A stretch of 63,994 nt of DNA, counting the filler, from Dimargaris cristalligena (lineage: Eukaryota), in assembly GCA_003614675.1 (NCBI GenBank). It is 10 parts of 10 records of this genome, joined end to end, with 100 filler letters (N's around TTAATTAATTAA, not from the genome) between each part and the next. Parts side by side here need not be neighbours in the genome. Positions count along the whole stretch, not along the records: positions 19,344 to 25,679 come from ML003532.1; 9 more parts are not named here. The stretch is one strand, 5' to 3'. The first letter of the stretch is position 1. Each line of letters opens with the position of its first letter. The translations under genes and the position numbers were made by a program. Shown in pieces: positions 11,996 through 63,994 of the stretch. A model generated the notes under the pieces. It saw nothing but the letters and a program-made list of their open reading frames with translations. It had not been told where the DNA came from and did not search any database.

Positions 11996-12137
11996 AATGG
12001 GAGAAGTTCAACAAGGCTGTATAACGAAAAATCCATTTGGTGAGGCAACTACTACTGGTTGAAATTAAATATCCCACCGATTTTCCCATACACATATCAG
12101 TTGAAACCTTATACAACCGAGCTAAACGTCTCCCAAA
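11996..12137 (+). mobile_element. MITE family A, copy 1 (about 142 bp)
   Basis: Left end ATGGGAGAAGTTCAACAAGGCTGTATAAC; degenerate right end TATACAACCGAGCTAAACGTCTCCCA; aligns by eye with 63135-63276. Confidence 0.75.
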
Positions 12138-12749
12138 TGAACCCGATAAAAATGACGTTTGGTTAAAAATGAAGATTGACAGTACTCAATGGCATAGTGG
12201 GATACATGCCCCATTTAATTGGGGGGTGTTATTAAAGACCAGGCAGTATAACAGCTGTATACTATAGATATAGCCTAACGATGGAAACAAAGTAACTAAG
12301 GATTAATTATGGGTAAATGTAAATGAGATACTAAAGAAAGGTACGAGGCATGTCTCCAAATAAATTGGTGGTACTGCCAACTGATTCGCCGATTCGGCAC
12401 ATTTCGAATGGCCGGGTCCAATAATACGAGGATGGGCGATGTGACCAGTATATCGCCGTGAACATAAACGCAAATGTATGCAGGAAAAGCGCAAGGGTAA
12501 GTGGTAATTGGGATGATAGATCCGACATGAGGTAACGATTGAAAAGGGCCTGGTACTGAATGAGTTGAATAAATGTTGGGTTAGTAACTAAAGTGCAACG
12601 GCGATACTGGGTAGTATATTGAGATGTTTATTTACTGTGGCTCTAACAGTGTCAACCGCACCTCGAATTACAAGGTATATAATGGAATTACACTGGAAAA
12701 CACGCACGCACGCGCATTTCCTCTAGGGTACCATCATGGTCCACCAGGG

Positions 12750-15105: not shown

Positions 15106-15247
15106 TGTGTGTGAAATTTGGGCCAATTGTATAAGTTCTTCATTAATATTAGTATGGCAACCTAAGTCAGAGATTCACTTTTAATCAGTAAAATGTAACC
15201 CATATAAAGGATTCTTTGTTGTACAGCCTAGTTGAACCTCTCCCATA
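15106..15247 (-). mobile_element. MITE family A, copy 2
   Basis: Minus strand starts TATGGGAGAGGTTCAACTAGGCTGTACAAC; the opposite end reads TGTGTGTGAAATTTGGGCCAATTGTATA on the plus strand. Confidence 0.75.
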
Positions 15248-15692
15248 TGCTATGTCAAATATTAAAATGAAGAGACGGAAATGGCTAAAGAAAGGTGATC
15301 CTTCGGTGATTGAATTCCCACACCTCATTGATGGAACTAGGCGCCATTATTACCTAGTTCCCAAAGGCAGGTGGACTAATCACATTGATCATTAGGCCGG
15401 ACATTTTATTATAAGTCACCTATTTGATAGTCAGGTCCGAGATTGGGAGATCAGGATTAGACTATTGTAGCTGTCACTGTAATCATTTTGGAATTGAAAA
15501 TTTACTCTGTACTTACTTAAGACAGAACCAATTTGAATTTTAGATTTTTATATAAATACCAGGTCTCGAGGCATTTAGTAGAAAGTCTAACCATCCTTGA
15601 TATATACCAGTATATACCTTATACTAAGCTAATCTCTTTCCCATTTCCAACCATAGCCAGTGCTCCATCCATCGCCAGTCTTACCTACTCCA

Positions 15693-19343: not shown

Positions 19344-19722
19344 GGAGGCTGGTTATTCCCAAGCCCTACTCATAAAGGATCGTCGTAGTATAAAAGTGGT
19401 AATATAAGGTGGTCAATTGTCATAGCTTTAAAATCATCATTGACTTTGACGACCTATAACTTCATCAATAATAGACGGAAAGGCAAATAGAAGTATGATT
19501 TGGAAAGCTGAAGGAAAAGAGAATCAGCTAGCATAAAGAAATACAATATTATTAACGACCCCGGACCGTTCCCATGGAAATAACTCGTCAATCGTCCGGG
19601 GCCTTGAATTCACCCAAAGTATGACTACTTTGTGGATTAGCAATATGTGTTGGAGCTTACGTGGCCCCTGGCCAGCTGCCCACGGCAGCACATCTCCTCA
19701 GTCTGACTTTGAACCCCATGGT

Positions 19723-22700
19723 TCAAACTGAGTGAAAATACTGGCGCAAATGTACTCCCGCGGTTGGATCTTTGAAAGGAGCACCATCAAGTTCGCAGAG
19801 TGTGTACACGTCCTCATGAATAACTGTATCAATGACATAGGGACCTCTCCATCTCAACCGAAGCTTGCCTTTTACCTTGGATAACCGTGTGTCCTTTAGT
19901 AATACCATGTCGCCTGGTTGAAATGGAGTTCGTCGAATGGGATGACGTCTTTCAAAATACTTCTTTCCACGTTGGCGGCTCTCATCGAGGTTAATCCCAG
20001 CTAGCTCACGCAGCCATGAGTTCTGGATTAACTGGATTGATCGGAACTGAAGTAACTCGTCGGTGGACATGCCCTTTTGCCAGGGTAGACTAACCCACGT
20101 ACTTTCTTGTAAGTCAAACGGCAATGTGCAGTCCTGTCCATATATCAATCGGTATGGACTCAAACCCGTCGTGGATTTAACTGTGGTTCTGTCTGCCCAT
20201 AGCGCCGCATGCAGAAATCCTGGCCAGGTCTCAGGCTGATTATGACACAGCTTTTTCAAACAGTTCACTAAATCGCGGTGACCACGCTCAATCATACCAT
20301 TGGTCTGTGGATGGTATGCAGTAGTGAACTTCAACGTTAATCCATCCTGCCTTGCCGCTTTGGCAACTACTTTGCCCCACAACTCGCCCCGATCAGCAAG
20401 TATTTCACCAGGGATGCCAAAACGAGATATGATATCCTCATATAAAAACTGGTACACGGTGGAACTCTTCTTATCAGTTAATGCTCGGGCTTCGACCCAA
20501 CCAGACAGATCGTCACGGGCGACAACTAGATAACGGTGACCATCGGCAGACTCCTCAAGCTCTGTCAAGTCAATACCAATGCGACTGAACACCGTGGATC
20601 CTACTGAGACCTTTAGAGGGACTTGAACTGACCCGTATGGATTTCGCTGGCAGATGTCACAGGTACGAATTACCCGCTCAATGTCTTTGTATAACTTTGG
20701 CCAGAAAAATCGACTGGCACACATACGATAGGTAGCTTTGATACCTCGGTGACCGCTGGGATGACCTCCATGAACAGCCTTGATGACTCGAATTCGCTCT
20801 TCTGGATCACTGATCACTCGCCGAGGTAGACCCATCTTTTCACGTTTGAAAAGCATACCTGATTCAAGTAGATAGTTTCGACTTTGTTGTTTGACGCCAG
20901 CTCGTTGATTAGCTGTCAAGTCCTTGTTAGGCGAACCAGTTTTGAGAAACTGAATGATGTCCGAAAATTTGCCATGATCTTTCACGCCTGCTTGCTTGAT
21001 TTCATTGACACCTAAATGAATTCCTTCATCAGTGATACTAGTGCTGTGAACTACATTAACACCTGTACTACCAAATCCGGCAATGCCCTGTTCCCCAAGA
21101 ATGGCTTCCTTTGGGACTTGGATAACCTCGGGTCTGGCAAATCGTTCCATAATGAACTGAGCAACCCGGTCCCCCTGTTTAATGTCCTGGGACCGGTTTA
21201 ATTCGTTGGACATGATTACACATATTTCTCCAGTGTAACTTGGGTCTACTACTCCACCCCCAACTCGAAATCCACGTAAAGCCATGCTGCTGCGATCAGC
21301 AATTCGAATGTAGGTACCGTCAGGTGGTGTACAGTGTAGCCCAGTGGGTACCCGGACCGTTTCAAAGGGTTCAAAATGAATATCAACACGTGCAGTCACA
21401 TCCATCCCAGCATCGGTGGAATGCTTTAACACTGGAATAGGTGTACCATCAGAGGCATAGACCTTTAGTTGATTTACCTGGGGCGGTGGTAATGAGCCTT
21501 TCATGGGTAGTCGGCTAAGAGCATCAGTAATGGGATTATCAACTCCCTTGATGTGCCGAATTTCAAAATCGAACATTTTCAAATAACCTATCCATCGACT
21601 AGCCACATCACCCGGAAGATCAGGGCAATTAATCAAACCAATGAGTGGTTGAGCGTCAATTTCCAGGATAAAGAAGACTCCATACAGGTAGCGACGTAGT
21701 TTCTTTACCATCATGTAGGTAGCAAAGAGCTCACGTTTGATTTGTGAGTAACGACGTTCACGATCAGAGAATAGGTAGCTCTCATAACGAATTACATAGC
21801 GTTGACCATCATTATCCATTTGACCAAGTACGGCCCCAGCGCCAATAGGACTAGCATCAGTAGTAAGTATCAGTGGGGGAACGTCCTCCCCATAGCGAGG
21901 TGCACGGATTAGGGGTGCTTCGGTGATGGCTTTCTTTAGGGTCTCGAATGCCTTGCTCTGCTCAGGGCCCCACTCGAACTTTACTCGCTGACGGGTTAGA
22001 GCATACAATGGACCCGCAATAGTAGAAAAATGGGGTATCCAAATTCGCAGAAATGCACAGGTGGCAATAAACGAGCGTACATCTTTTGGGCTGGCTGGAA
22101 TATCCCAAGCTTGGATAGCTGCGACCTTCGAGTCAGTGGGACAACGGCCATCGGTAGTACACATGTAACCAAGTACCTCAACCTTAGTCATTGCAAATGC
22201 TGATTTCATGCCGCTGATAACCAACCCGGCCTTCATCAAGTCAGATAGGATACTGACTACGTCGTCCGCATGCTGAATTACTTTCTGTCGAACTTCCTCA
22301 GTCTGAATTTCTGCTTCGGTCTTGGGCATTCTTGTTTTTACTACACCGTCGTCAACAAATAGGGATAACCGATCCGGCATGTGGCGGTGAAGAATGGATG
22401 TGAGAACTCGCTGAAATGCACTCACACTATTTGCCCACCCCATCGGGAGACGTGTCATATGAACTAGGCCAATTGGTGTATTGATGGCAAAGATATCACG
22501 GTCTCGGGGATCAATAGGAATCTGGTCATACCCAGAATACAAGTCGAATTTAGTGATAAGACTGCACCCAGATAATTCTTCCGCCATTTCATCGGCTACG
22601 GGTGGAACACCAGCATTACGAATTGTGACAGCATTGACCGGCTGGAAGTCTTGGATGAATCGTAGATTGACCCCATCCTTCTTCAACAGTGTGAACCAGC

Positions 22701-25419
22701 GACTGGCATAAGGACCCTCAGATGGTTCAATGACACCAGTTTCCAGGCGATCTCGTAGCATTTGAACAACTTTATCGTGCATTGCTCGGGGTACCGCAAA
22801 TGGTTTGTAATTCCACGGGGTGTGTGGTACAGTTGCTACTCGAATAGGTGGCACAAACTCGGGCTTAATCATCCCCAAGTGTTGTTTGGTAAAGGCAAAG
22901 ACTTGGTCGACCTCTCGGAGTCGGCCAAGGAAATAACGAATTTCTTTTGGTGTCAGTTCCCCATCACCAATAACTAATGTTTTAACATTTTCATCAGTCA
23001 ATTGGAGTTCTGGGTCACCATTTATGTCAACCTCGTCAAAGACATCTCGACCAGTGATAGGATACTCTTGCTTGAACTCGTCGGGAATAGGTGCTGCAAC
23101 CGGACGAATTTTCTTGTGAACCGGTTTGAACCTCGCCGCATTCACCATGGGTAACTCAGCCATTACCATCAGACTACGCACCATACTACTGATAGGTCCT
23201 TCAGGTATAGTAAATCGCTCGGTGACATTATTCCAGGTTACCACCAACTGCTTCTGCCCATCAACACCCTTACTAACGACCCAGTCGACGGAGGATAACC
23301 AGGGCATTCCCAGAATAGTCTGTTGGTGCTTGTCATTGACGACTAAGAAACTGGTGGGTACGGTTAACTGCCCAGTGGTGACCAGCACATCCCAGACGGC
23401 CTTTCCAGATTCCACAGCACTTTCGCCAACGCCGAATACCTTGGGGATATCAGGATGTAACTGAATTGCACCCTCCGGTAATAGTTTTGCCAATCGCGCT
23501 GGTACCAGGTTAACTTCAGACCCAGTGTCAATTAGCACATCGGCTTTCGCTCCCCCAATCATGGCAGGAATAACCATTGTTGGCAATCGTAAAACTCGGG
23601 TGTTCACTTTCGCACTTCGGGGACTGGAATGACCCCGGGATTTAATCCCCATACCACCGTCAGAGTCGGACTCGGAGGTATCGTCCACCTGAACTCCATG
23701 AGCTATCGGATCTGGAGTTAAGTACTCCCGGTGCTTCACTAGATGCTGGCGGACTAGCTTACGGGCTCGAGGTACAACCGCTAGATATTCCCAGGTAGAT
23801 AAACCTAGATTACCACGGCCAAGATGTTCCATGACCAATTCATCAGAGTTAACCTCATCAATCTTGGCTACTAAGTGGTACTTCGGGTTTTTCCTCTGTC
23901 TAGTTGGCACCTCAGTTCCCTTCTCCTGGGTCTGCTTCCCCGGTGAAGGTACTTCGATTTCCTCCATACCACCATCATCGTCGTCATCGTGATTGACAAT
24001 TTTGGCTGGTTGAGGTTGATTAGAAGATGCACTCTTGTGTTTCCCATTGAGCGAACGGTCTTCCACCACAGCATCGGCTGGCTCACCGGCCAGGCATTTA
24101 GATCGCTTGATAGCCCCGGCCTGACGCACCACTAGATGGCTAGACATCTCCATTATGCCCCATTGGTCCGGAATCTTCGAAATGGTTACCGCCGAACTGG
24201 TGATACGTGGTTCGCGTTCTGCTAATGCTGCCTTGATACCGCCTTGGCCAAATCGTGTGGTGGCTACAGACCCATCAGCAAAGAGAACTTGCTTGCCACT
24301 CAGGCGCAGCTTCTTGGCAGCCACGGCCTCAAAGAACTCGGTACAATCGCTTCGGTAGTGTCCTGGTTGATCACAAAACAGGCACAGCTTCTGGCGAGGC
24401 GTGGTAGAATGTCCCTGCTTTGCTCCCTCCAATCTGGCCTGCATCATCCCACTGAGTCGATCAAACAGTCGGGCCTCCATGCCGGCAAACTGGCTAGCCA
24501 AATCATCAACCTGCGCTTGGTTGGTTTTGACGGCCGTCTTCGATGTTTTACTGATGGACCTTTTCTTCCTCTCATGCCCGTCGTCATCGCTGGAATCATC
24601 ATCAGTGTCCTCAGAACTATCCGAGTCCGAATCATAGCTGGAGTCAGAACTATCCCCGTCCCTTCTACGTTGGCCAAGGTGTTTATCCTGATGCGCGGTC
24701 TCAGTTAGCTTTGTCAGATACTCAGGGAACGATGGTTTTCCATTGTGGAATTTATCCAAGGTCCGCACAAGCAATTGACGTGGCATCGTCTTTTCCAGCA
24801 GCTTGATTTTTTCTGCATTGGAAACTTCGGTGGCAAGGCTCGCCGCCTCCTCAAAGATCTGAAGGAATGGCAGGATCTCTTTACCACGGGGTCGCTTCTT
24901 GGCCAGGCGCTGCAAGGTTCTATAACAGTGGTCCGGCCCTTCGCGTCGCTTTCTGGCTGCGTACTTCAGCAGGAAGGCCTTGACTTGCTTCCAAGGTGTT
25001 CCCGGTTCGTACAAATCGCGCAGCTGGTTTCGCACTTTCTTCGGGGTTAATTTCTTAACATGACGCAGGCGTTCTCGATCAGACATACCGCGCGCATTAG
25101 CATAGGCCTCGAATTCTTCCAGAAAACTTTCAGCGTCCTCATCGGTGTACCCCAGAGGTTTGTCCATCCCCTGGTACGTGGTACCAACCCACGGAATGAG
25201 CCCCCCCGCATTGGGCTCCACTTGTGTTGCCAACGATTTGAGGGACTCCGCTGGCGTGCCTTTGGGAGAGTTGGCAGGAGGGGGAATCTCCGGTTTCTTT
25301 CCACTTGATGGCTCGCCATATTTTGTCATGTAATGCGGAACGTTGGGCTTTGCTGGGTTCGGGGGGGTCGAGACCGAGGTGTCCTTAGGGAAGTCGCCGC
25401 TGGTGTTCTGGTCGGCCAT
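19723..25419 (-). CDS. Gag-Pol polyprotein (1898 aa): Gag with CCHC knuckle, aspartic protease, RT, RNase H, dUTPase, integrase
   Basis: CLFCDQPGHYRSDC knuckle; LIDTGSEVN protease; RT KFDLYSGYDQ...RLPMGWANS...LFVDDG; RNase H TDASPIGAG...RYSQIKRELFA; dUTPase AGMDV/RSSMA/GGVVDPSYTGEI/GDRVAQ/GFGSTG; integrase HGGHPSGH...CDIC, GIDL, ADRG, MIERGH, WRGPY; no chromodomain. Confidence 0.97.
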   Translation of the reverse strand: MADQNTSGDFPKDTSVSTPPNPAKPNVPHYMTKYGEPSSGKKPEIPPPANSPKGTPAESLKSLATQVEPNAGGLIPWVGTTYQGMDKPLGYTDEDAESFLEEFEAYANARGMSDRERLRHVKKLTPKKVRNQLRDLYEPGTPWKQVKAFLLKYAARKRREGPDHCYRTLQRLAKKRPRGKEILPFLQIFEEAASLATEVSNAEKIKLLEKTMPRQLLVRTLDKFHNGKPSFPEYLTKLTETAHQDKHLGQRRRDGDSSDSSYDSDSDSSEDTDDDSSDDDGHERKKRSISKTSKTAVKTNQAQVDDLASQFAGMEARLFDRLSGMMQARLEGAKQGHSTTPRQKLCLFCDQPGHYRSDCTEFFEAVAAKKLRLSGKQVLFADGSVATTRFGQGGIKAALAEREPRITSSAVTISKIPDQWGIMEMSSHLVVRQAGAIKRSKCLAGEPADAVVEDRSLNGKHKSASSNQPQPAKIVNHDDDDDGGMEEIEVPSPGKQTQEKGTEVPTRQRKNPKYHLVAKIDEVNSDELVMEHLGRGNLGLSTWEYLAVVPRARKLVRQHLVKHREYLTPDPIAHGVQVDDTSESDSDGGMGIKSRGHSSPRSAKVNTRVLRLPTMVIPAMIGGAKADVLIDTGSEVNLVPARLAKLLPEGAIQLHPDIPKVFGVGESAVESGKAVWDVLVTTGQLTVPTSFLVVNDKHQQTILGMPWLSSVDWVVSKGVDGQKQLVVTWNNVTERFTIPEGPISSMVRSLMVMAELPMVNAARFKPVHKKIRPVAAPIPDEFKQEYPITGRDVFDEVDINGDPELQLTDENVKTLVIGDGELTPKEIRYFLGRLREVDQVFAFTKQHLGMIKPEFVPPIRVATVPHTPWNYKPFAVPRAMHDKVVQMLRDRLETGVIEPSEGPYASRWFTLLKKDGVNLRFIQDFQPVNAVTIRNAGVPPVADEMAEELSGCSLITKFDLYSGYDQIPIDPRDRDIFAINTPIGLVHMTRLPMGWANSVSAFQRVLTSILHRHMPDRLSLFVDDGVVKTRMPKTEAEIQTEEVRQKVIQHADDVVSILSDLMKAGLVISGMKSAFAMTKVEVLGYMCTTDGRCPTDSKVAAIQAWDIPASPKDVRSFIATCAFLRIWIPHFSTIAGPLYALTRQRVKFEWGPEQSKAFETLKKAITEAPLIRAPRYGEDVPPLILTTDASPIGAGAVLGQMDNDGQRYVIRYESYLFSDRERRYSQIKRELFATYMMVKKLRRYLYGVFFILEIDAQPLIGLINCPDLPGDVASRWIGYLKMFDFEIRHIKGVDNPITDALSRLPMKGSLPPPQVNQLKVYASDGTPIPVLKHSTDAGMDVTARVDIHFEPFETVRVPTGLHCTPPDGTYIRIADRSSMALRGFRVGGGVVDPSYTGEICVIMSNELNRSQDIKQGDRVAQFIMERFARPEVIQVPKEAILGEQGIAGFGSTGVNVVHSTSITDEGIHLGVNEIKQAGVKDHGKFSDIIQFLKTGSPNKDLTANQRAGVKQQSRNYLLESGMLFKREKMGLPRRVISDPEERIRVIKAVHGGHPSGHRGIKATYRMCASRFFWPKLYKDIERVIRTCDICQRNPYGSVQVPLKVSVGSTVFSRIGIDLTELEESADGHRYLVVARDDLSGWVEARALTDKKSSTVYQFLYEDIISRFGIPGEILADRGELWGKVVAKAARQDGLTLKFTTAYHPQTNGMIERGHRDLVNCLKKLCHNQPETWPGFLHAALWADRTTVKSTTGLSPYRLIYGQDCTLPFDLQESTWVSLPWQKGMSTDELLQFRSIQLIQNSWLRELAGINLDESRQRGKKYFERRHPIRRTPFQPGDMVLLKDTRLSKVKGKLRLRWRGPYVIDTVIHEDVYTLCELDGAPFKDPTAGVHLRQYFHSV
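21062..21468 (-). other. dUTPase domain inside pol, between RNase H and integrase
   Basis: Five trimeric dUTPase motifs in canonical order; motif 5 reads EQGIAGFGSTG. Confidence 0.93.
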
Positions 25420-25679
25420 CGCGTCGTATGTCGTTGTCTCGCGTCGTCGGTTGTTAAAAAGGTCGAAATAAAAAAAACGTTATAAGGAAAACGTTATGCT
25501 CAAATCGTATAATCAATTTGGTACTCGGAGATACCACAAACTCAAACTAAGTAGATAAAAGTAAAACAAGTAGAAGTAATGGTAATAAAATAACTGATAA
25601 TGATAAAACTGGGTAAAAGGTTAATCGTCGGTATCGTCTGGTGAAGTTAAAACAGATATTTATTCGTTTATCTCGAAAC

Positions 25680-27423: not shown

Positions 27424-27565
27424 TATGGGGTGAAAGTCTGCCCACATATAGACGGCTATTAATGATATGTGCATGGTACAATGTATTGCAGATTCATTCT
27501 CAGCAAGTAATAGAAGCCTTATCCAACCCATTTTTTATTTATAGTCTGGTTGAACCTCTCCTATA
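27424..27565 (-). mobile_element. MITE family A, copy 3
   Basis: Minus strand starts (A)TATAGGAGAGGTTCAACCAGACTATAAA; the other end reads TATGGGGTGAAAGTC on the plus strand. Confidence 0.7.
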
Positions 27566-28716
27566 TCATTTATTATCAGCCTAGGAACTGTGGCAGTCGC
27601 GAACCAATCGATCAATGGAGGGGCCCATTTTTGGGGATAAGACCAACTTAATTGACAATGCATTCTGTTAATGTTTCCTGTGCTCATATTTTTAGTGGCT
27701 GCATTGGTTTGGGCACTGATTGAACCTCCGTTACACATGGCTCGGGATGCGCAGGAATGGGGCAAGCACACTCAATAAGTCAGTTTGGGCCTGGATACAT
27801 GTGCCCAATCACACCCATTCTACGTGACTATATATACATCTCTCTCTCCTATTTTCGTGGAGTGAAATAGACCAGCATCTTGACTGGCCACCAATATTAG
27901 AATCCCAATGATTAACATTTCCTCGTATATTTAGAACTGACCAAGTGGCCAGTCGCAATACAGGTGAAAATCCAAACAGGTCGCCGACAGCCGGGCCAGC
28001 TTAAGCAGGGTAGAGTGTGTTATTCCAGGCAGGGAGAGAGTGGGGAAGATGCCACGCTGACTTTGTGACCTCTTCCTCTCGCTTATCTTCGACCCGTCCT
28101 AATGACATCCCTTAGGCGGAATACCTTGGGAACATTCTCCACGTAACCAGCTGTTCTAGTTTGCGACCCGACTCTATTTCCCCAAATATGAATGCCCCCG
28201 AGTAGGACATGGCGATAGATAAGCAAGGTTATACAGAAGTTTAGAGTGACACCCTGGAAAGGAGCTGATCCTAAAACAATAGCCCTATGCTGTCAAAAAA
28301 ACGCCTCATGCTCAGAGAGCATTATTACCGAATAGAAATAGTATAGTGTGGGTCCAATGGGAGAATAACCAGGGCATATGGTCTGTGAGTGGGTATCAAA
28401 GTTTTCCTACTATTACGACTGTTCACCAGTCCTCTTTAATAATTCCCCGTCCGGTATAATAATGCCGGGTTATGCTTCCAGCCGTCTTACTCAGCTTTGT
28501 CTTCTTACTTGTTGAATCCACGCCTATTCCCTTGCGTAGATCCATTTTCCTGTTAGTTAGACCATTTGGCTCAACTCCTCTGCCCTTCTTCTCTTATCAA
28601 CTCTCTCTGCTTGAACTCCCCCCCCCCCGTTGCATACACTCCTTCACTGATTCCGCGCTTGTATTTATCTAGCATATGCCATATTCGACTACAATACTAT
28701 TCTTTTAACTCAACCC

Positions 28717-31539
28717 ATGCACCAGATTCCTGCGCTTCGGGCGGCAAGTCGGCGACTGGCCCTTCCGTTACGGGGCAGCGGTGGTCCGCTTCTCGTCCAC
28801 CGGTCCCTCCGGCCCACCGCCACGTCCGGTAGTCGCCAGGCGTCGGCCCGCTCCTTCCATTCGGGCCGGTGGTGGTCCCGGGCCCGGTCCTGGACCTCGT
28901 CCCAGTTCTCCTCCGCATCTGCCCGCTTCACTAATAGTAGTAGTTACACCAGCGGCAGTGGTCGACCTCGGTTGGCGCCCGGTCGCTTATTCCCGGCCCT
29001 GGTCCTCCTCCTCCGGCACCCCGCTTTCCACACCGCGGCCCATACCCTCGCCACGGCGGGGGCCACCGCTCCCCGGCGCGGTCGTGACCTCACCAAACGA
29101 CTTCCCCCGGCCCGTCTGTACGAACTGAAAGCCGACCACTACCGCCGGGCCTTACTAACGGAATCCAACGACGATGTTATTTGGAATTTATACAAGAAAC
29201 TTCATGCGTCGCGGTCCACGAATTTTCTAACCCGCCAGGATTACGTATGGACGTTGCATCGGCTGTGGAACCCGGCCGTATTGGCCAATTTTCGGTTGGA
29301 GGCCCGTCGGGCCGCTAGTCGTTCGTTGGCTCGGGGACCATCAGCTGCGACGGGCGGTGGCGCCATGTCCAAAGCCGTATCGGCCGCAACGTCATTTAGC
29401 CAGGCCCAGCTCGGGCGGTTTGCCACCCTCGGACCTGGCGGGGCCGTCAACCCCCTCATGAACCAGCGCATTATGCATACTGCCTGGCAAACGGACCTCA
29501 CCTCACCCATTCGGATAGACCGCTGGTTTAATCCCCAGGAAGTGCGGTTTCCCCGTATGCGGGTACGCACCCGGCAGCGGATTCGGCAAATTAGCCAGGA
29601 CTGGCTATTCCCCGAGACCATTGCAACGTTGGACACTACCCTACGACCCGCCGCGGCCACGGCTACAACGGCTACCCACGGTGCCGCGCGCTCTTTCCGG
29701 AGAAGGGGGGATACTCCCATTAGTCACCACCACCTCCGGCCCTCCCAACGTCCTACTGCCAAAATTCGCTACAGCAGTGGGATGGTAGGGGGAATGACGA
29801 CGGTAACACGGGGCCGCCTGAGTGGGCAGCCCATCCCGGAAACTCCCGGTCACTACGGGGCTGAAGGCGGGGATTTCCCTTTGATATTCACCCCGGCCAA
29901 TGATGAGGGTGGGAGCTATGAAGAGGTGCCATTGTTGGTATCCGAAGCCACAGCGGCCACTGCTGCCCTCCGAGATACCACCAAGGCGGCTGCTGCTGCC
30001 ATGGGCGATGAAACAGCTGGCAGGGCGGCTAATAATAGTAACTCTTTGCACCCCAATTCCCTTCCAGAGGGGGGCGAGAAGTTTCCAGACACCCCCACCG
30101 TCGTTGATTTTCCCCACCGCGACCAGTCTGGTGAAGAGACTCCCGGTTTGACCGGTTCCGCCGGGCCCTCCTCCGCATCATTTCAACCGAGCCGCCCTTC
30201 GCCCGATGACTGTGACTGGGTTCTGGAACTTTATATCCGCCTTGGGCTGCACCAGGATGCTGTTGACCTGGCCCACCTGTTAGCACAGCGCCAAATCGGG
30301 TTTTCCACCTCCACCCTAAACTGGCTGATGTTGGCTTATCGCTCGCGGAGAAATCTGGTGGGCGCCCGGGCCCTTCTGCAGGATATGCTCCACGCCTGGC
30401 CCCAGGTATCCCCCAACGCCCGAACCTACCGCATTTTCATTGGCCTTTTGGTCCAGTGCGGTGAATTTGAAGAAGCCTGGTCGACCCTGGAGGACCTCCA
30501 GGCCCTCACCCAATCCCCCGAAACGCACATGGCCCAGGTACTACTTAAGGGAATGCAAAATACCCAAACGGATGAAACCATCCGGCAGTTTTGTGATAAT
30601 ATCCGGCAACGGAGTTCCACCCACTGGTCTCATGCGCTGGCCACTAATTTAATCGAAATGCTCAGCCCGCCGTTGTCAACCACGAAAACAATGGGTCGTA
30701 GTGACATGCTGGGCTCCTTCACCGCCAGTGGTCATCATCCCCATCCCCTTGCCGCCAACTTAGATACCGCCGTGGCCGTGTTCCATACCTATCGCCTTCA
30801 TACACCCTCCATCCATGCATCGGTTTTCGGTGCCCTCTTGCGGCTTTACAATGCCCACGACCAAGCCTACGATGGTATCGTTACCCTCCGCCCTTTAATC
30901 GACGCTACCTTCTCGAAAGAACACCTCGGAACTGACCTGGCGTGTGAACTCATGTCTTCCTACGCCGCCATTTCCGACCACAAGAATGTATACCTCCTCT
31001 ACCGCAATCTCATCCAGCATAGTAACAGCAATACGGGCTTCGTGACACTTCAGGCTAACCATTTCTTGCATTTCCTGCACTGTTTCGCCACGTTAAACAA
31101 TATGGACCTGGTTTGCCACGCCCTCTACCACCTTTCCGGTAATTCGGCCCTAGCCACCACTACTCATGAGCATGGAGATGGTGATGCTAATGGTGGTAAA
31201 GTGAGGAGGAGTAGTGCAAGCAACCAGCGTCCTTTGTCCCTGCATACCGGCTTAGTCAACCGGGCACTCGAACTGGCCCTCACTACCCATAATTCCGGCC
31301 TGTTACCTGTTTTTTTGTACCTACTCGAACTGAATTGTCTCCCGTGGAACTTATTCACCTACGAATTAGTGATGCGCCATTACCTACAATCAGGGAATAC
31401 TAAGGCCGCCCATCGGTACTGGCGTAAATTCACCCAATCCGGGGAACCGGTCCACCAAGCGAGCTTTGCGGCCTTTTGCGCGAAGTATCGACCCATCGAT
31501 TCGCCACCCCACCGGCGAATGTGGTATGTGTTCGCCTAG
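28717..31539 (+). CDS. Mitochondrial pentatricopeptide-repeat (PPR) protein
   Basis: Arg/Ser-rich, acid-free presequence; tandem 35-aa PPR motifs (STLNWLMLAYRSRRNLVGARALLQDM; PNARTYRIFIGLLVQCGEFEEAWSTLEDL; NLFTYELVMRHYLQSGNTKAAHRYW). Confidence 0.88.
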   Translation: MHQIPALRAASRRLALPLRGSGGPLLVHRSLRPTATSGSRQASARSFHSGRWWSRARSWTSSQFSSASARFTNSSSYTSGSGRPRLAPGRLFPALVLLLRHPAFHTAAHTLATAGATAPRRGRDLTKRLPPARLYELKADHYRRALLTESNDDVIWNLYKKLHASRSTNFLTRQDYVWTLHRLWNPAVLANFRLEARRAASRSLARGPSAATGGGAMSKAVSAATSFSQAQLGRFATLGPGGAVNPLMNQRIMHTAWQTDLTSPIRIDRWFNPQEVRFPRMRVRTRQRIRQISQDWLFPETIATLDTTLRPAAATATTATHGAARSFRRRGDTPISHHHLRPSQRPTAKIRYSSGMVGGMTTVTRGRLSGQPIPETPGHYGAEGGDFPLIFTPANDEGGSYEEVPLLVSEATAATAALRDTTKAAAAAMGDETAGRAANNSNSLHPNSLPEGGEKFPDTPTVVDFPHRDQSGEETPGLTGSAGPSSASFQPSRPSPDDCDWVLELYIRLGLHQDAVDLAHLLAQRQIGFSTSTLNWLMLAYRSRRNLVGARALLQDMLHAWPQVSPNARTYRIFIGLLVQCGEFEEAWSTLEDLQALTQSPETHMAQVLLKGMQNTQTDETIRQFCDNIRQRSSTHWSHALATNLIEMLSPPLSTTKTMGRSDMLGSFTASGHHPHPLAANLDTAVAVFHTYRLHTPSIHASVFGALLRLYNAHDQAYDGIVTLRPLIDATFSKEHLGTDLACELMSSYAAISDHKNVYLLYRNLIQHSNSNTGFVTLQANHFLHFLHCFATLNNMDLVCHALYHLSGNSALATTTHEHGDGDANGGKVRRSSASNQRPLSLHTGLVNRALELALTTHNSGLLPVFLYLLELNCLPWNLFTYELVMRHYLQSGNTKAAHRYWRKFTQSGEPVHQASFAAFCAKYRPIDSPPHRRMWYVFA

Positions 31540-57699: not shown

Positions 57700-57771
57700 T
57701 ATGGCAGATATTCATCCAGGCTGTATAACGAATAATCCATTTGATGAGGTAAATATTACTGGTCAAAAGTT
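57700..57771 (+). mobile_element. MITE family A, copy 4 (cut by contig end), starting 8 nt after the CDC73 stop
   Basis: TATGGCAGATATTCATCCAGGCTGTATAACGAATAATCCATTTGATGAGGTAAATATTACTGGTCAAAAGTT aligns with the first half of 63135-63276. Confidence 0.75.
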
Positions 57772-57871: not shown

Positions 57872-59241
57872 CATTCACTATCAACTTTGAATAAGGCTGC
57901 CGGTGAAGCACGTGGGTAAATGTTGCCCTCTTTACCCAAGTGGGACTTGCGGGCATGAAAGCTAGCGACCACTCAATTCCAGCCAATTTATCTCTCCCTG
58001 GCACTCGTTTTCCACTAACGAGAAAATCTTACAGCTCACTTGTACCAAAGCCGCCAGAATGGTAGACATCGATTTCATAATATACACGATACGTTCAGTG
58101 TAAAGTCCACTCTAACCTAACGACTGTACCTCTTTACAGATTATTCGCCTGCGGCCTTGCTATTGTGTCCACTTTATCTTTGCTTTTAATTACCTTTACG
58201 CACCCCAAGCAACTGCTCTTGGAAGCCCCTTCATTTACTAACTCTGTTTGCTGTTCCTTTCCGGTTCTCCGCCGGTTTACTATGTACCTTATTGAGCAAG
58301 TTTTTACGTTACAGCGTAGTGATTGCTTTTTACCCTTGTTGTTTTCACTATCCACCAGGGCAGGGGCCCGGTCAGACCGGCTGTTTACGACTCCTATAGA
58401 AGTTAACACCAGCCACTAGACATTGGCACACCGAAGTTGAAATAGTCACACCATTATTTTAAATACAGCAGCTAGAAAGAAAACGCGCTTGCCGAATGTG
58501 TGTGCTTTAAAGGCTCGTTCAATATAGTTGTCTCTTGTTTGACTCTCTTTCCAGTTAAGCAAACCTCCTTCACCCGTCTACCTTCAGCCCAGTCTATCTC
58601 ATTATCCACCTAGAGTTCAAGATAGGTAGAAGTGATGAACGGGGGGCTGCTTATACACCCTCCGTAGTGGTGGAATAGGGGCTGTAGACGAGAGAGGTTC
58701 TGCTATAGTCACCCAAGCTAGGCCAGCCCATGGTCCCCCCTCTTTGGGGCCCATGATATTTAGCGCGGGTCTGCTTTTTTCGGTGATTGACCAGTGGACC
58801 GCACGCCATTATATTTTCCTTTATATTAGGTCTGCCCTTAAGCACAGCGGAACACTATTAATAGGCCTCGCTTGCAGGGCTAAGCCTTACTAAGGTGTCC
58901 AGCTTCCCAAGTCGGCCTGGGTTTAGGGGACCGTTCCTACCACTTGATTATTTCGGTTCCCATTGCTGCCCAACTGCCCAGCTTAATTGGGCATTGCCCA
59001 GCTGTAATTTTCTGTCCCATTGGGCAGCCTTCTCCTAGAGTACTGTATCGGGCACATTCTCCCTCTCCCACTGTAATCTGCCTGGCTATACTCTTGAATA
59101 CATAAAAAACGGCCGTATCGCCCCCTAACCATAAGTACAAGTGTTTTATTACTCCACCATTCCTCCAATTATCAGTCAATACAAGCCTCTATACCTATAC
59201 TCCCATTTCACTCTCTCCAATCCTTTATACCGAAAATCACC

Positions 59242-59448
59242 ATGAGATTCCTCGCCATCGTTCCCTTAGTCGCTGCTGCCCTACTTGCCGTTGGTCATGC
59301 TCGTCCCATTCCCACAAACTACTATCCCGGTGCCTCTACATATAGGGAATCCTCATCCGGATACTCCAGTAATTACCCTATCCCCCTATATCAGCAGGGT
59401 ATGCATCTCCAGCGCCGTCACTTGGATTTCTACAGAGACTCGCTTTAG
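59242..59448 (+). CDS. Small secreted precursor (68 aa, 'VGHARP' family) with an RR site before a 9-aa C-terminal peptide
   Basis: caccATG; MRFLAIVPLVAAALLAVGHA|RPIPTNYYPG...GMHLQRR|HLDFYRDSL. Confidence 0.75.
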   Translation: MRFLAIVPLVAAALLAVGHARPIPTNYYPGASTYRESSSGYSSNYPIPLYQQGMHLQRRHLDFYRDSL

Positions 59449-59649
59449 ACATGTCTGCAACGCCCACCTCCATTAAATTGTAGTCCTGAGTGAGACAACG
59501 GGATAACGGGCTCCAATTTCGACCGTGCAATCATGCTTTCCGCGAAAGTGCGTTGTGCTTTTATTATTTACTTGTATTATCAACATCCCGGTGATTTGGT
59601 AACTTACCACTTCAGGCCACCATTCAACTGTATTATTTATCTTTCCGCT

Positions 59650-59672
59650 TTATATATATATATATATATATA
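59650..59672. repeat. (TA)n microsatellite
   Basis: Direct reading. Confidence 0.8.
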
Positions 59673-62241
59673 TGTATATGTATATTGCCTCTTTGCACCG
59701 TATCAATGTACTTATATTTCCCCCCTATATGTAGTCGCTTATTAAACACAAGTATTGTATGCTGACTCTAGAGAAACACACACCCATAGAAATATCAACA
59801 ATGGTTACTATAGAGCTGAACTGGAAACTATAGGTATGTCGTGTGGTAGATGGGAGAACAGCACAGTATAATTTGGTATAGCACATCGTCAATATAATAA
59901 GGTTTAGTTTTATTTTCTAGCCAGAGATATGTAATATAGGTTATATATTTGATAGTTATTATATGTTTGTGCGTACGGCAATGCCGAGGGTGCAGCTAGA
60001 AAGTATATTGAGGATAAATATAATCGTATGGCTTCTCACTGCATACATACGTCTTCTACCCACCTCATGATTACGGACTCACCTAACGTCAGTCGAGCAA
60101 GAGGATTTAATGTTATTTCATCGAGGCGCCAACTCACCTATCACTAAACTAGCGCCTCGCTCATCCTGCGGTGCCTCTCAATTTTTATATTATTCCCAAC
60201 CACGATCTCTGATTAGTCAGAGCAAGTTTACAAGTTATTGTCGCAAAGAGTTTGCCCTTTTTATTGCGGCTCTTCAATTATTCTAATATATTCGAACAGG
60301 CCCCTTTTACCTCTCACAGTATTGTTACAAGACATAGTGTGGCTCAACAAGACCCATTGAGGGATATCTATCACTGCTGTTCTGGAAACCCATTCTCACT
60401 GGAAGGAGCGGGCATGCTGGAAGTGGTAGCAGAAGATAGAACCTGTTTTCTACCCACTGTAGGTTGCTATAGTCAGTATCTACATTTCTACATCTCCGCG
60501 ACGAATCGATGATGTATTTCAGCCAATTGGACACACTGATGTCCAAATGAGCAGGCAGATATCAGTTGTCAATGCATTTATATATATTCACGCCACCAAA
60601 TGGCCTGGGTAATATCTTCTATCCCTCTGACTTCAGTAGGCAATAATACAGCCACCTCTGGCTTCCCAGAAAGCCCCACCATAGCCAACAAATCCAGTCT
60701 AATGCACTGCCGAGTTGTTAATATTTAGCGACATTCCCCTACTTGATATGTGGACCTGCCCTGTCTGACACCATTGAGTATACCGGTTACGGGATGGGGG
60801 CTCATTGCTGATGTGGCAGACCTTGTCAGGTGAACCTGATGACAAATATGCATACCAGGTTTAGGATCCCATGTTGAAGATTGCAGGCAGCTAGTATCTT
60901 TAACATGCCAGTTGAGTAATAGTAGTTGACCTTTAGAGCTATCCACGCAATCGGCATTGATGAAGGACCTACGAATTTTAGCCGCCAGCGGTTTGTGTCT
61001 GGAAATATATGACCATAGTTGTTTACTAAATTCTTCCGCTGACTATACCTCCTATTATTTTCTTGGCCATTGAAATTCGCTGTCGTATCAATAGGCAAGA
61101 TGTGACATAATTACAAATACCCACATACCAATATTGACAAACCAGACTCAAAGACCCAATACTCTACCTATTTGTAAAATTATCCGAGGATAAAAGCTAT
61201 CACACCGGTATTAAATGGTCGATGATATTTATGCGGGACAATTGACGGACGGTATTTTTGCGACTAGGAGTGTAGGTTTCACGAGTCGAATAATCCACTA
61301 GCTAACTAGATTGTGGTTCTCACGTATCTACTATTTTACTCAAATTCAAAGCATTGGCGGCTACATGCGTTTAACCAGAGCGCAATTAGTGTAGACTGAA
61401 TAAATGTGCAAGTCAAAATCCCGAGCATGTTTGGCAAGGGAGGGGGAGCGAGTGGTTATTTGGTAGTAAAATAATCCTATATTTTACATAGAAATGTTAC
61501 AGCGGCTTACAAGTTAACTCGGCTATTGTCTGACACAGTTTAGTTGTTACATATTGCATTCCAATTGGTGAATGCCTCAATGAACAAACAAGCCGGCCAT
61601 CCCCCTTGCCCAATAGTGTAAGAGTCCCACTACCTTTCCCTCTAATGCCTCCCCGCTCTCTCTTATATTCCCTCCCTTTAATCGCCACATTAGCGAGAAA
61701 GGTGCATGGGTTAAAGAGACCCATACTCTTGGTACTATGGCGGTGATCCTAAAATGTACAATGGTATTGGCGATCCCGGATTAGAGTAAGGTGGACCAAT
61801 GGAGAGTTTACCATGCCTACTCGCTTTCAATTGATTTGGACAAGCTCAAGTATATAAAATAGTTTGGAGGACGAGATGAATGATTTATTATCGACAGATT
61901 GAAAAAAGGCCGTAGGGCTACGGATCAAAGGGGATTTAATCTGTTGGATATGAGGGGGAAAACGGAGAACCAGCTAGTTAGACCATCTGTCCCTAGTAAG
62001 CCCATATTACTCTGCTGCGACCTACACTTATCTTATAAATACCCTACCCCCCGCCCCCGTCCCCTTCTCCGACCAAAGCCATCCCCGCATTTCTCTCTCC
62101 CCCCCACTTCATTCCACCCTTCACTGTAGCTTTGCAGTCTTTCGATCATCTACTATACCCTACCGAACCGTGGTACTGGTTTATTACTCGTTCTTCCAGC
62201 AGCCGTCATACGCAGCCCTCTCCCCGCTCGATCACCCCACC

Positions 62242-62760
62242 ATGAAACTTATTTCCTCTCTTACCCTTGTCATGGCCACTATCGGTTCTGTAGCCATGGC
62301 CCACGCCAACTCTGCCATTGCCGAGGGCAATATCAACAATAAACCACTTCTGAAGAAACGCGGCGAGCAACCCGCCAAGTGCAGTGTCGACGACAACCCG
62401 CTTTTAAAGAAATGTGAAGTACGCACCGCTTTGAGCAATGTCCACTCTAACCCTACCCTCCCCACAGATAGTGTTGATGACAAAACGTCTTTGAAGAAAC
62501 GAGAAGTGCGAGCTGCTAAGGGCAATGCCAACGATAACCAACATCTGAAGAGGCGCGAGGATCAAGCTGTCGAGGGTAATGTCGGCGACAAACCATTTCT
62601 AATGAAGCGTCAGGCGCAACCCATCAAGGCAAGTATCGAAGACCCATCGCCTAAGAAGGATAGTAAGTGGAGCGACCGTATAGTCAAGGGCGCTGGTGCT
62701 TTAGTCGGTGCCCTCGGTGGCTCATTGTTGGCCCCCGGCTTTGGGTCCGTTGCTGGTTGA
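62242..62760 (+). CDS. Secreted Kex2-processed repeat protein (KEP-like) ending in a glycine-zipper peptide; the frame continues past TGA 62758 to TAA 62829
   Basis: caccATG at 62242; TATAAATA near 62034; signal peptide; about 18-aa repeats ending LKKR/LKKC/LKKR/LKRR/LMKR; tail GAGALVGALGGSLLAPGFGSVAG*IAGCYG. Confidence 0.82.
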   Translation: MKLISSLTLVMATIGSVAMAHANSAIAEGNINNKPLLKKRGEQPAKCSVDDNPLLKKCEVRTALSNVHSNPTLPTDSVDDKTSLKKREVRAAKGNANDNQHLKRREDQAVEGNVGDKPFLMKRQAQPIKASIEDPSPKKDSKWSDRIVKGAGALVGALGGSLLAPGFGSVAG

Positions 62761-63134
62761 ATTGCTGGCTGCTATGGCACCAAACATTATATAGATAAAA
62801 ACCGACTGGAAGCGGAGGCCGCAAATTAAAAAATCTGCTGCCCGGTGACTTCGCTTTGCTAGGCCAACCGTCCCCAATATATATATCAGGTTATTTCCTC
62901 TTTAGTTTTCCATCACCAGCAGTGCCCTTGTTCCTTTGCGATTTCCTTTGTATATTTTCAGTTCGGTTTGTTTCTTTATGTACATGCGTTTATATATAAA
63001 TATGTTGCAATAACCACAGGCTTTCTCGAAGTATGGTATGCCGAGATAGATAAATCAAATTCACTAGTTTGAATATCAAGGAAGAATGAACTGCAATGGG
63101 ATGATTAAGATCTCTGCGGGGAGTATTTATTCGA

Positions 63135-63276
63135 TATGGGAGAAGTTCATCCAGGCTGTTTAACAAAAAATCCGTTAGATGGGGCCGATATTACTGGCTA
63201 AAATGTTTTCTCCTACATATTCTCACATACACGTATTATGTAAAACTTTATACAGCTGGGTTGAATTTCACCCATA
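63135..63276 (+). mobile_element. MITE family A, copy 5 (best-preserved TIRs)
   Basis: TATGGGAGAAGTTCATCCAGGCTGT...ACAGCTGGGTTGAATTTCACCCATA; imperfect TIRs of about 27 bp, TA at both ends, no ORF. Confidence 0.82.
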
Positions 63277-63994
63277 TAGTAACATGGAGACTTGAATAAC
63301 TATTAACCCACACTCCTATTCAAAATGTAGTATATTTCTTTTTTTTTCTTGGCCTTAATTTAGTGGCACAGCAAAACTGACATTACCACCGGCCAAACCA
63401 GAGTAGTTAATTTGGAGGTAGGGGATTTGCTAAAGTACCAGACAGCCAAGTGTCACAAACCCCAGAGGGTGACCACGCGAACCATTATTATGTCCCACTT
63501 CAACTGACCATTATTCCGAAGTACTCAATACTAATAAGTTCAGTGCATTTTAGAAAGAGAGAGTAGGTATTGTAATAGCCTGCGCATATTTTAAATTCTT
63601 TAATTATTTACTTCGCCAGAACAACCCACCAGGGGGATCGACTATCCACCAACCTACTATGCTAGCCAGGGTATTTCTGACAAAAAATATTCCCTAACTC
63701 CACTTCCATTCGCTTAAGGCATATGCATTTGTATTTGTATTATATTTAACCACATAGTGCCTCACCCACCCTGACTATCACCCGACTAATTCTGTAGAGT
63801 TCTATTCATGCTGCCAAAGAACTAACTTGTAAGTCAAGGCCCACATTAGCCTAACCTGGTAACGTAGCCCCGAACTACGATGGGCTTCTAGATCTATATA
63901 AAACATATGGACTGTCAATGAAGCCAAGACAATATTAAGGAACACATTTCGTGCGACTTAGAAACTTGCTCTAGTGAGAAATTAGCCGCCGGTC

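Follow-up and report, generated by a model that had tools for sequence, protein, structure and literature searches.

A Ty3/gypsy retrotransposon of Dimargaris cristalligena with a dUTPase between RNase H and integrase

General features of the element

The window analysed here is a 63,994-nucleotide stretch of DNA from Dimargaris cristalligena (assembly GCA_003614675.1), a zoopagomycete mycoparasite. It strings together unrelated contigs of about 6.3 kb with N spacers, and neighbours in the window are therefore not genomic neighbours. One of these contigs (G000:C1325, ML003532.1; window 19344-25679) is occupied by a retrotransposon with long terminal repeats (LTRs) that carries a dUTPase domain between RNase H (RH) and integrase (IN). 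In our best explanation it is a recently inserted Ty3/gypsy element of a fungal non-chromovirus clade, whose family captured a dUTPase that is active in the family and impaired in the window copy. We put the probability of this explanation as a whole at about 0.7.

On the minus strand, an open reading frame (ORF) runs from the ATG at 25419 to the stop at 19723 and encodes 1898 amino acids (aa) with zero internal stops. Pfam and motif reading agree on the order Gag(CCHC)-protease (PR)-reverse transcriptase (RT)-RH-dUTPase-IN, as the original prediction had read it. The matches are RVT_1 (aa 942-1086), RT_RNaseH (aa 1150-1282), dUTPase (aa 1327-1453; 79.6 bits with a cut-off of 22, E 2e-22), Integrase_H2C2 (aa 1538-1593) and rve (aa 1614-1704); the dUTPase motif span given earlier, 21062-21468, is right to within a few codons. 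The zinc knuckle (aa 346-361) and the aspartic protease (aa 617-709) fall under the Pfam cut-offs and were recognised by a C-X2-C-X4-H-X4-C motif, read directly, and a DTGS motif. A search for a chromodomain after the integrase gave no Chromo match at E 0.1 in the element protein (P0001), nor at 0.05 in the sibling C1390, which bears out the earlier assignment to a non-chromovirus lineage. C1390 is open over 1851 aa and 74% identical to the element.

The PR-RT-RH-IN order of Pol, LTRs with TG..CA ends, a tRNA primer site, a target-site duplication and the lack of env are those of the Metaviridae. The element is not a lentivirus: only 32 nt separate the ORF stop from the 3' LTR, there is no env, and the domains are Ty3-type. 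Ylt1 has a single ORF, and the Ylt1-type features present here are the single Gag-Pol ORF and the absence of a chromodomain. The features of the element, all on the minus strand, are as follows.

19723..25419, minus: single Gag-Pol ORF, 1898 aa (ORF reading, Pfam, open sibling C1390)
25223..25679, minus: 5' LTR, its 3' 457 nt (contig end cuts the rest), ending ...CACA and containing the first 65 ORF codons
25203..25220, minus: primer-binding site, 2 nt past the 5' LTR and within the coding frame (18/18 to tRNA-Lys(CTT))
24343..24384, minus: Gag CCHC zinc knuckle, aa 346-359 (direct motif reading; Pfam zf-CCHC weak)
23293..23571, minus: aspartic protease, aa 617-709, DTGS (Pfam Asp_protease_2 E 1e-4, slightly under cut-off)
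22060..22767, minus: reverse transcriptase, aa 885-1120, FVDD at 1021 (Pfam, alignment)
21490..21876, minus: RNase H, aa 1182-1310 (Pfam, alignment)
21061..21441, minus: trimeric-type dUTPase, aa 1327-1453 (Pfam 79.6 bits; PDB dUTPases E 1e-21; feline immunodeficiency virus (FIV) Pol dUTPase E 2e-18)
21088..21090, minus: Gln1444 at the arginine-finger position of motif V (alignments of siblings and stand-alone dUTPases)
20641..20808, minus: integrase HHCC zinc domain, aa 1538-1593 (Pfam 64 bits)
20098..20589, minus: integrase DDE core, aa 1611-1774, then a GPY-containing tail without chromodomain (Pfam, sequence)
19693..19703, minus: short purine-rich run, weak candidate for the polypurine tract (read from sequence)
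19344..19692, minus: 3' LTR, first 349 nt (contig end cuts the rest), starting TGTG... (copies elsewhere start matching exactly at 19692)

Assembly integrity and age of the copy

The original prediction named misassembly of the dUTPase segment as what would undo it; contigs from two samples run through the segment without a joint. Three runs of one sample gave single contigs of 5589, 5590 and 5472 nt with zero substitutions relative to the element (at 25200, within a C run, one of them has 1 nt inserted); a contig of 5586 nt from a second study is free of gaps and differs by 73 substitutions. The assembly itself may derive from the first three; the fourth is independent. All four cross both dUTPase junctions, which rules out misassembly. 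The siblings, diverged as they are, have the same order (RH-dUTPase-IN in C1390 and C1968, dUTPase-IN in C1167), and a chimera of a dUTPase and a gypsy pol, for which nothing speaks beyond the fragmented state of the assembly, is left with a negligible probability.

The element had been thought young, and judging from its sequence it is. Its LTR pieces are 97.8-99.4% identical to flank-joined copies, and the observed/expected ratio of CpG in the ORF is 0.82; in seven other contigs with dUTPase elements from this genome it is 0.01-0.55, and in four further ones 0.61-1.17. The two LTR pieces in the contig do not overlap, so LTR-LTR dating is impossible within it. Thirty-eight of the 73 differences to the second isolate are listed, and the statements that follow on these differences refer to the listed ones: 13 are silent and 25 non-silent, mostly CpG-type transitions, a pattern that reads as neutral. 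Polarised by a sibling outgroup, 18 are derived in the second isolate and 3 in the window copy, with 4 unclear. The second-isolate copy has a stop in integrase; given this stop and the neutral pattern, an open frame is no proof of current activity. No RNA data set is listed among those in which the element occurs. In the alignment of this copy (run X5) to window 19666-25251 the differences are unevenly spread, 29 in 22213-23714 versus 9 in 19666-22212, perhaps through a methylation gradient or a mosaic copy.

The dUTPase domain

The original prediction had credited the element with all five dUTPase motifs, and this holds for four of them. Motifs I (AGMDV, 21411-21397), II (DRSS, 21297-21286), III (GVVDPSYTGEI, 21255-21223) and IV (GDRVAQ, 21174-21157) are intact, catalytic Asp and Tyr gate included. 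In motif V the Phe lid and the GFGSTG P-loop (21078-21061) are present, but the arginine finger is replaced by Gln1444 (21090-21088). All four family siblings have Arg in this column, as do 113 of 117 stand-alone dUTPases; the other four have Arg one residue along. In a viral dUTPase, exchange of the finger for Ala left no measurable activity (PMC7948977; this and the other papers cited by PMC number, PMC5911963 apart, are drawn on in excerpt). Since Gln takes the place of a catalytic Arg, the window copy's own enzyme is probably impaired, weak or dead.

The enzyme of the family probably works, because the domain appears to be under purifying selection and its catalytic motifs are all kept. 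Compared with C1390 and C1968, the proportion of nonsynonymous differences (pN) in the dUTPase is 0.17-0.20 and that of synonymous ones (pS) a saturated 0.81-0.89; in the same comparison, pN for RNase H and the integrase core is 0.07-0.10. By these ratios the domain is kept under purifying selection in the family. Modelled as a homotrimer, it scores 0.88 versus 0.00 for the best of three controls, with 87% contact agreement and a predicted local distance difference test (pLDDT) of at least 78; among solved pairs 21 of 30 reach the mark for this score, among single chains 0 of 23. As expected, the pass expresses likeness of the predicted trimer to solved dUTPases only.

The domain could also be kept for a non-catalytic role, as a particle spacer or scaffold or by binding a host uracil-repair protein. 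Such a role has been suggested for the inactive dUTPase of bovine immunodeficiency virus (PMC4531489), and the model retains fold and trimer surface in the Arg-less copy. The catalytic Asp, Tyr gate, motif II Arg-Ser and motif V Arg are nevertheless conserved among siblings despite saturation at synonymous sites, a pattern in keeping with selection on catalysis, and we consider this alternative improbable.

Phylogenetic position and gain of the domain

Separate phylogenies were built for RT-RH and for the dUTPase, a course suggested with the original prediction. The RT-RH tree has 65 gypsy rows and no retroviral or copia outgroup; P0020, P0027, P0038 and P0092 were dropped for having no usable RT-RH span. 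The element and two siblings sit in a 32-row clade (Shimodaira-Hasegawa-like approximate likelihood ratio test, SH-aLRT, 100) with Smittium, Tilletia and Puccinia polyproteins, the family being sister to a JGI protein and Smittium. All 101 similarity matches are gypsy-type polyproteins by their Pfam content. The nearest named relatives, polyproteins of Smittium, Tilletia, Puccinia and Phenoliferia with a DDLSGWVEARAL-type integrase motif, differ from the element in having no dUTPase. The domain is likewise absent from all of the other 29 rows of the clade and from the 16 outside proteins with the clade's integrase motif. Where an outside protein has RNase H and then the integrase zinc domain, a dUTPase lies between the two in 1 of 203 cases (P0103); the 203 were gathered by similarity to the query and are not a Ty3/gypsy census.

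The family is thus nested (SH-aLRT 100) among relatives that lack the domain, which argues for a lineage-specific gain. The spacer between RH and IN measures 82-178 aa in outside proteins with the clade's integrase motif versus 226 aa in the element, and in dUTPase-less relatives it ends, by eye, with a stretch like the one after the element's dUTPase; the dUTPase therefore reads as an insert. No Ylt1 or Tca3 sequence came up in the similarity searches, and the tree holds no such row; by its host range and lack of a chromodomain the clade fits the Ylt1-like group of PMC2864245, and the element resembles the Ylt1-like and SN_1006 lineages in having no chromodomain and a long LTR. The single ORF is a further likeness to Ylt1. 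Clade member P0013 carries a precomputed Chromo match, so chromodomain absence alone does not define the clade.

Origin of the dUTPase

The family's dUTPases form one clade (support 97/95). In approximately unbiased tests (p-AU), monophyly with the host-type dUTPases C757/C725 is rejected (0.034 under a mixture model, 0.018 under LG+G4). Monophyly with the dUTPases of family B, a distant Ty3 lineage of the same genome, is rejected under LG+G4 (0.034) and not under the mixture model (0.088); monophyly with P0103 (0.23) or with the dUTPase-PR family (0.082) is not rejected. Kinship with P0103 has 95/85 in a 36-row tree and is lost with wider sampling; the 70-row tree was a quick build. Of the independent capture proposed earlier, the part that stands is a gain restricted to the family (0/29 rows, 0/16 proteins); full independence is less secure, since a shared origin with family B is not rejected (p 0.088, mixture model). 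On this evidence the family gained its dUTPase after the split from its relatives, from a donor that was not the host DUT1 and may have been another Ty3 lineage in a module swap.

Direct capture from the host's own dUTPase gene would agree with the best PDB matches, which are eukaryotic and algal-virus-type enzymes, and with the two host-type genes in the genome (C757 adjoins an ORF like 3-deoxy-D-arabino-heptulosonate 7-phosphate (DAHP) synthase). Identity to the host-type enzymes is only about 40%, however, the motif II sequence is DRSS, a form common to many bacterial or unassigned dUTPases, and not the PRSG of the host copies, and with monophyly rejected we regard this source as very improbable. 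No close viral or prokaryotic donor was found: the best stand-alone matches are 34-51% identical and mostly unnamed, and none of 113 loci (80 from IMG/VR and 33 metagenomic, 28-41% identity) has an RT, RNase H or integrase nearby. Five outside proteins (P0130, P0155, P0177, P0234, P0244) hold three tandem dUTPase domains per chain.

LTRs, primer site and start of Gag

Twenty other copies of the 5' LTR end cease matching exactly at 25223, where loose read ends lie too. The LTR pieces at both contig ends are common in the genome (43 matches from 40 of the 151 candidates scored). Whole solo LTRs of 1115 and 1110 bp have TG..CA ends and are flanked by 5-bp target duplications, which are seen in these two and in two pairs of split flanks. 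The pairs, L005 (C206)/L250 (C478) and L011 (C2050)/L054 (C1234), have matching 5-bp duplications, and each pair probably flanks one insertion on its two sides; in the first pair, identity to the LTR pieces in the window is 99.4% and 97.8%. Contig depth is flat and low inside the element; on the LTRs it rises by a factor of roughly 35 to several hundred, in depths that are sums and do not count copies. Such a profile fits one or few full copies plus many solo LTRs.

All 18 positions of the primer site agree with the 3' end of the tRNA-Lys(CTT) of this genome, the next-best tRNA reaching 14 of 18; the comparison covers 44 distinct ARAGORN tRNA sequences from fetched loci, not all tRNA genes of the genome. 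The same site is present in C1390. A primer-site search with a guessed tRNA motif gave one match, no better than the control.

The ATG of the ORF lies 197 nt inside the 5' LTR (window 25223-25419, minus strand). Across the 20 LTR copies, the Gag-stub stretch has 1 indel in 3939 aligned bases versus 59 in 4784 in the upstream bases, and both ATG and open frame are kept in 18 of 20; the copies share ancestry, and these counts are not independent events. Because indels are nearly absent and ATG and frame are kept, Gag translation most likely starts within the LTR, as judged from the sequence; the alternative start is Met86, downstream of the primer site. The Gag start of Ty1 is likewise inside its LTR. 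It follows that each solo LTR would bear a 65-codon open Gag stub. In C1390 the frame is open across the LTR end, and three other matches to the C1390 LTR are cut at contig ends.

Ylt1 is listed as inserting next to tRNA genes (PMC5911963). Unlike Ylt1, the element's family has a tRNA gene near 0 of 13 LTR loci, within up to 1.5 kb of flank, which argues against tRNA-gene targeting by the element; such targeting is an element-level trait that may not define a lineage. A contig start is no more than about 250 nt away from many tRNA genes of the genome (e.g. in C475, C1152, C571, C131 and C949), perhaps because the assembly breaks at a tRNA-targeting repeat that is distinct from this family.

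Recurrence of the dUTPase and comparison with known systems

The genome has 33 PF00692 matches, 27 of them within Ty3 pol genes at three positions, with context assigned by profiles built for this analysis. Eleven lie directly after RNase H, 4 more directly before integrase, and 12 before protease or RT (7 dUTPase-PR, 4 with PR undetected, 1 PR-dUTPase-RT); 3 stand alone and 3 are without context. The 15 in the RH-IN slot divide into 4 in the element's family and 11 in family B. The family-B element C272 (L046 56-5947, minus strand) has a Ty3 ORF open over 1963 codons with YLDD, 34% RT-RH identity to the element, RH-dUTPase-IN order by Pfam coordinates, and an Arg-bearing motif V of sequence GSFGST. 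For a relic dUTPase between the PR and RT domains in family B there is no support (hhalign probability 0.2%). A third Ty3 lineage has a divergent dUTPase directly upstream of the protease (C1592/L052, C1438/L059, C2183/L031, C1998/L033, C1993/L037), and L047 (C1534) has the order PR-dUTPase-RT. Outside the genome, the ENA protein P0103 is a chromodomain element with RH-dUTPase-IN order by Pfam coordinates; C272 and P0103 thus share the element's slot but belong to distant RT lineages. A 51-member eukaryotic cluster of the ESM Atlas (match score 0.93, 203 shared features) has dUTPase in 100%, IN-Zn in 94% and RNase H in 55% of members, their order not being given. The layout that had been called unusual is real and not unique to the element, since a second distant lineage and an outside chromovirus use it. 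Window 57872-63994 (G000:C1331, L051) is itself a decayed family-B element with RT-RH-dUTPase-IN, and the beginning of an LTR of the element's family (family A) lies close to the end of that contig.

The order RH-dUTPase-IN is, as predicted, that of FIV and equine infectious anaemia virus (EIAV); these, caprine arthritis-encephalitis virus and visna virus join RT-RNase H, a dUTPase of about 130 aa with a trimeric fold, and integrase in one Pol (PMC4531489). Unlike lentiviruses, the element has no env and no accessory genes, its RT, RNase H and integrase are Ty3-type, and its dUTPase scores 69.9 bits with FIV and 80.7 bits with cellular enzymes, which makes it no nearer to the former. On sequence grounds, the likeness is one of convergence, not descent.

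Among fungal Metaviridae, the Postia elements PosPlaTy3-3, -4 and -5 have a dUTPase at the N-terminus of Pol, between PR and RT or at the C-terminus of Pol, and Phanerochaete elements and Tmt1 (Tuber) are cited as dUTPase-bearing as well (PMC2864245). All have a captured dUTPase in Pol, its position varying between families and the captures being thought independent; a supplement caption calls them chromodomain elements (PMC2864245). The element differs from them in its RH-IN slot, its non-chromovirus clade and its zoopagomycete host. Rotifer, planarian and fungal Ty3/gypsy elements with the dUTPase between PR and RT have also been described; the bdelloid Juno, Vesta and TelKA and the planarian Burro resemble the element in having a dUTPase in a Ty3/gypsy Pol and differ in this position and in their animal hosts (PMC5408684, PMC6431247). 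No RH-dUTPase-IN order in Ty3/gypsy was found in the literature covered, to which Repbase, GyDB, Novikova and Blinov 2008, Riccioni 2008, PMC2774666 and the supplements of PMC2864245 do not belong; the excerpted text of PMC3248453 makes no mention of dUTP.

Other features of the window

A small dispersed repeat, perhaps a miniature inverted-repeat transposable element or a terminal repeat, is common to several contigs (window 11997-12138, 57701-57768, 63136-63277, 15215-15248 and 27533-27566). On a different contig, window 28651-31539 (plus strand) holds a host ORF of 962 aa with weak pentatricopeptide repeats.

Proposed mechanism and significance

We propose that a trimeric dUTPase entered the RH-IN spacer in an ancestor of the family. 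A single polyprotein would be translated from the AUG within the 5' LTR, and the element's protease would cut it into capsid/nucleocapsid, protease, RT-RNase H, dUTPase and integrase. Host tRNA-Lys(CTT) would prime reverse transcription and integration would leave 5-bp duplications, as their sequence signatures indicate. By analogy with FIV and EIAV, the freed dUTPase may trimerise in the particle and hydrolyse dUTP, and thereby guard the cDNA against uracil at times of scarce host enzyme; in non-primate lentiviruses the dUTPase gene between RT and IN matters in non-dividing cells (PMC4531489).

Several observations weigh against this explanation. Candidate cleavage sites are not kept letter for letter among siblings: a 'VN' protease signal at each junction of the window copy, once a candidate for a conserved signal, is not kept in them. 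The dUTPase trees, with 145 columns, are poorly resolved and name no donor. Since the host possesses an ordinary dUTPase gene of its own, C757 at the least, a need for the element's copy is assumed and any benefit would be specific to a stage or compartment. The rate at which the dUTPase evolves is about double that of the core enzymes. Finally, no difference is listed in 20984-21527, and the second isolate may share Gln1444; if the source element already had the change, the youngest subfamily has transposed with an enzyme short of full activity.

The last three points, with the Gln at the arginine finger itself, would also suit a dUTPase that was once useful and is now a dispensable passenger, the youngest subfamily transposing with a crippled enzyme after a change that may predate both copies. 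Against this, 4 of 4 siblings retain the Arg and motifs I-IV are intact; the window copy has other private changes (3 of the 21 polarisable amino-acid differences are derived there); and the change to the Gln codon has the form of a CpG transition, the prevailing mode of decay here, and may have arisen as damage after insertion. We regard a passenger as unlikely and prefer a captured enzyme that works in the family and is impaired in the window copy.

The dUTPase of C1968 is identical to P0107, deposited as 'dUTPase-like protein, partial [Dimargaris cristalligena]', and a second sibling's domain is likewise deposited as a stand-alone 'dUTPase-like protein, partial'. Such entries, taken for host genes, can inflate dUTPase family counts in early-diverging fungi; in Entomophthora muscae, dUTPase enrichment beside retroelement domains has been reported.

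Of wider interest is that several Ty3 lineages within a single genome make repeated use of a dUTPase, which two of these lineages carry in the lentiviral slot. The lentiviral RH-dUTPase-IN layout arose in the Metaviridae also, probably more than once, which makes the RH-IN slot a permissive site and not a lentiviral hallmark. What dUTPase does in fungal retrotransposons was an open question in 2010 (PMC2864245), and this genome lends itself to matched comparisons between related elements that have or lack the domain, among three insertion positions, and between siblings with and without the catalytic arginine. More tentatively, the genome may be a hotspot in which selection against uracil in cDNA drove several unrelated Ty3/gypsy lineages to gain or swap a dUTPase at three positions of Pol, two of them converging on the lentiviral layout. 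That layout would then be recurrent, if undescribed, in Metaviridae, and might indicate that retrotransposition takes place in fungal cells that do not divide and are rich in dUTP, spores for example.

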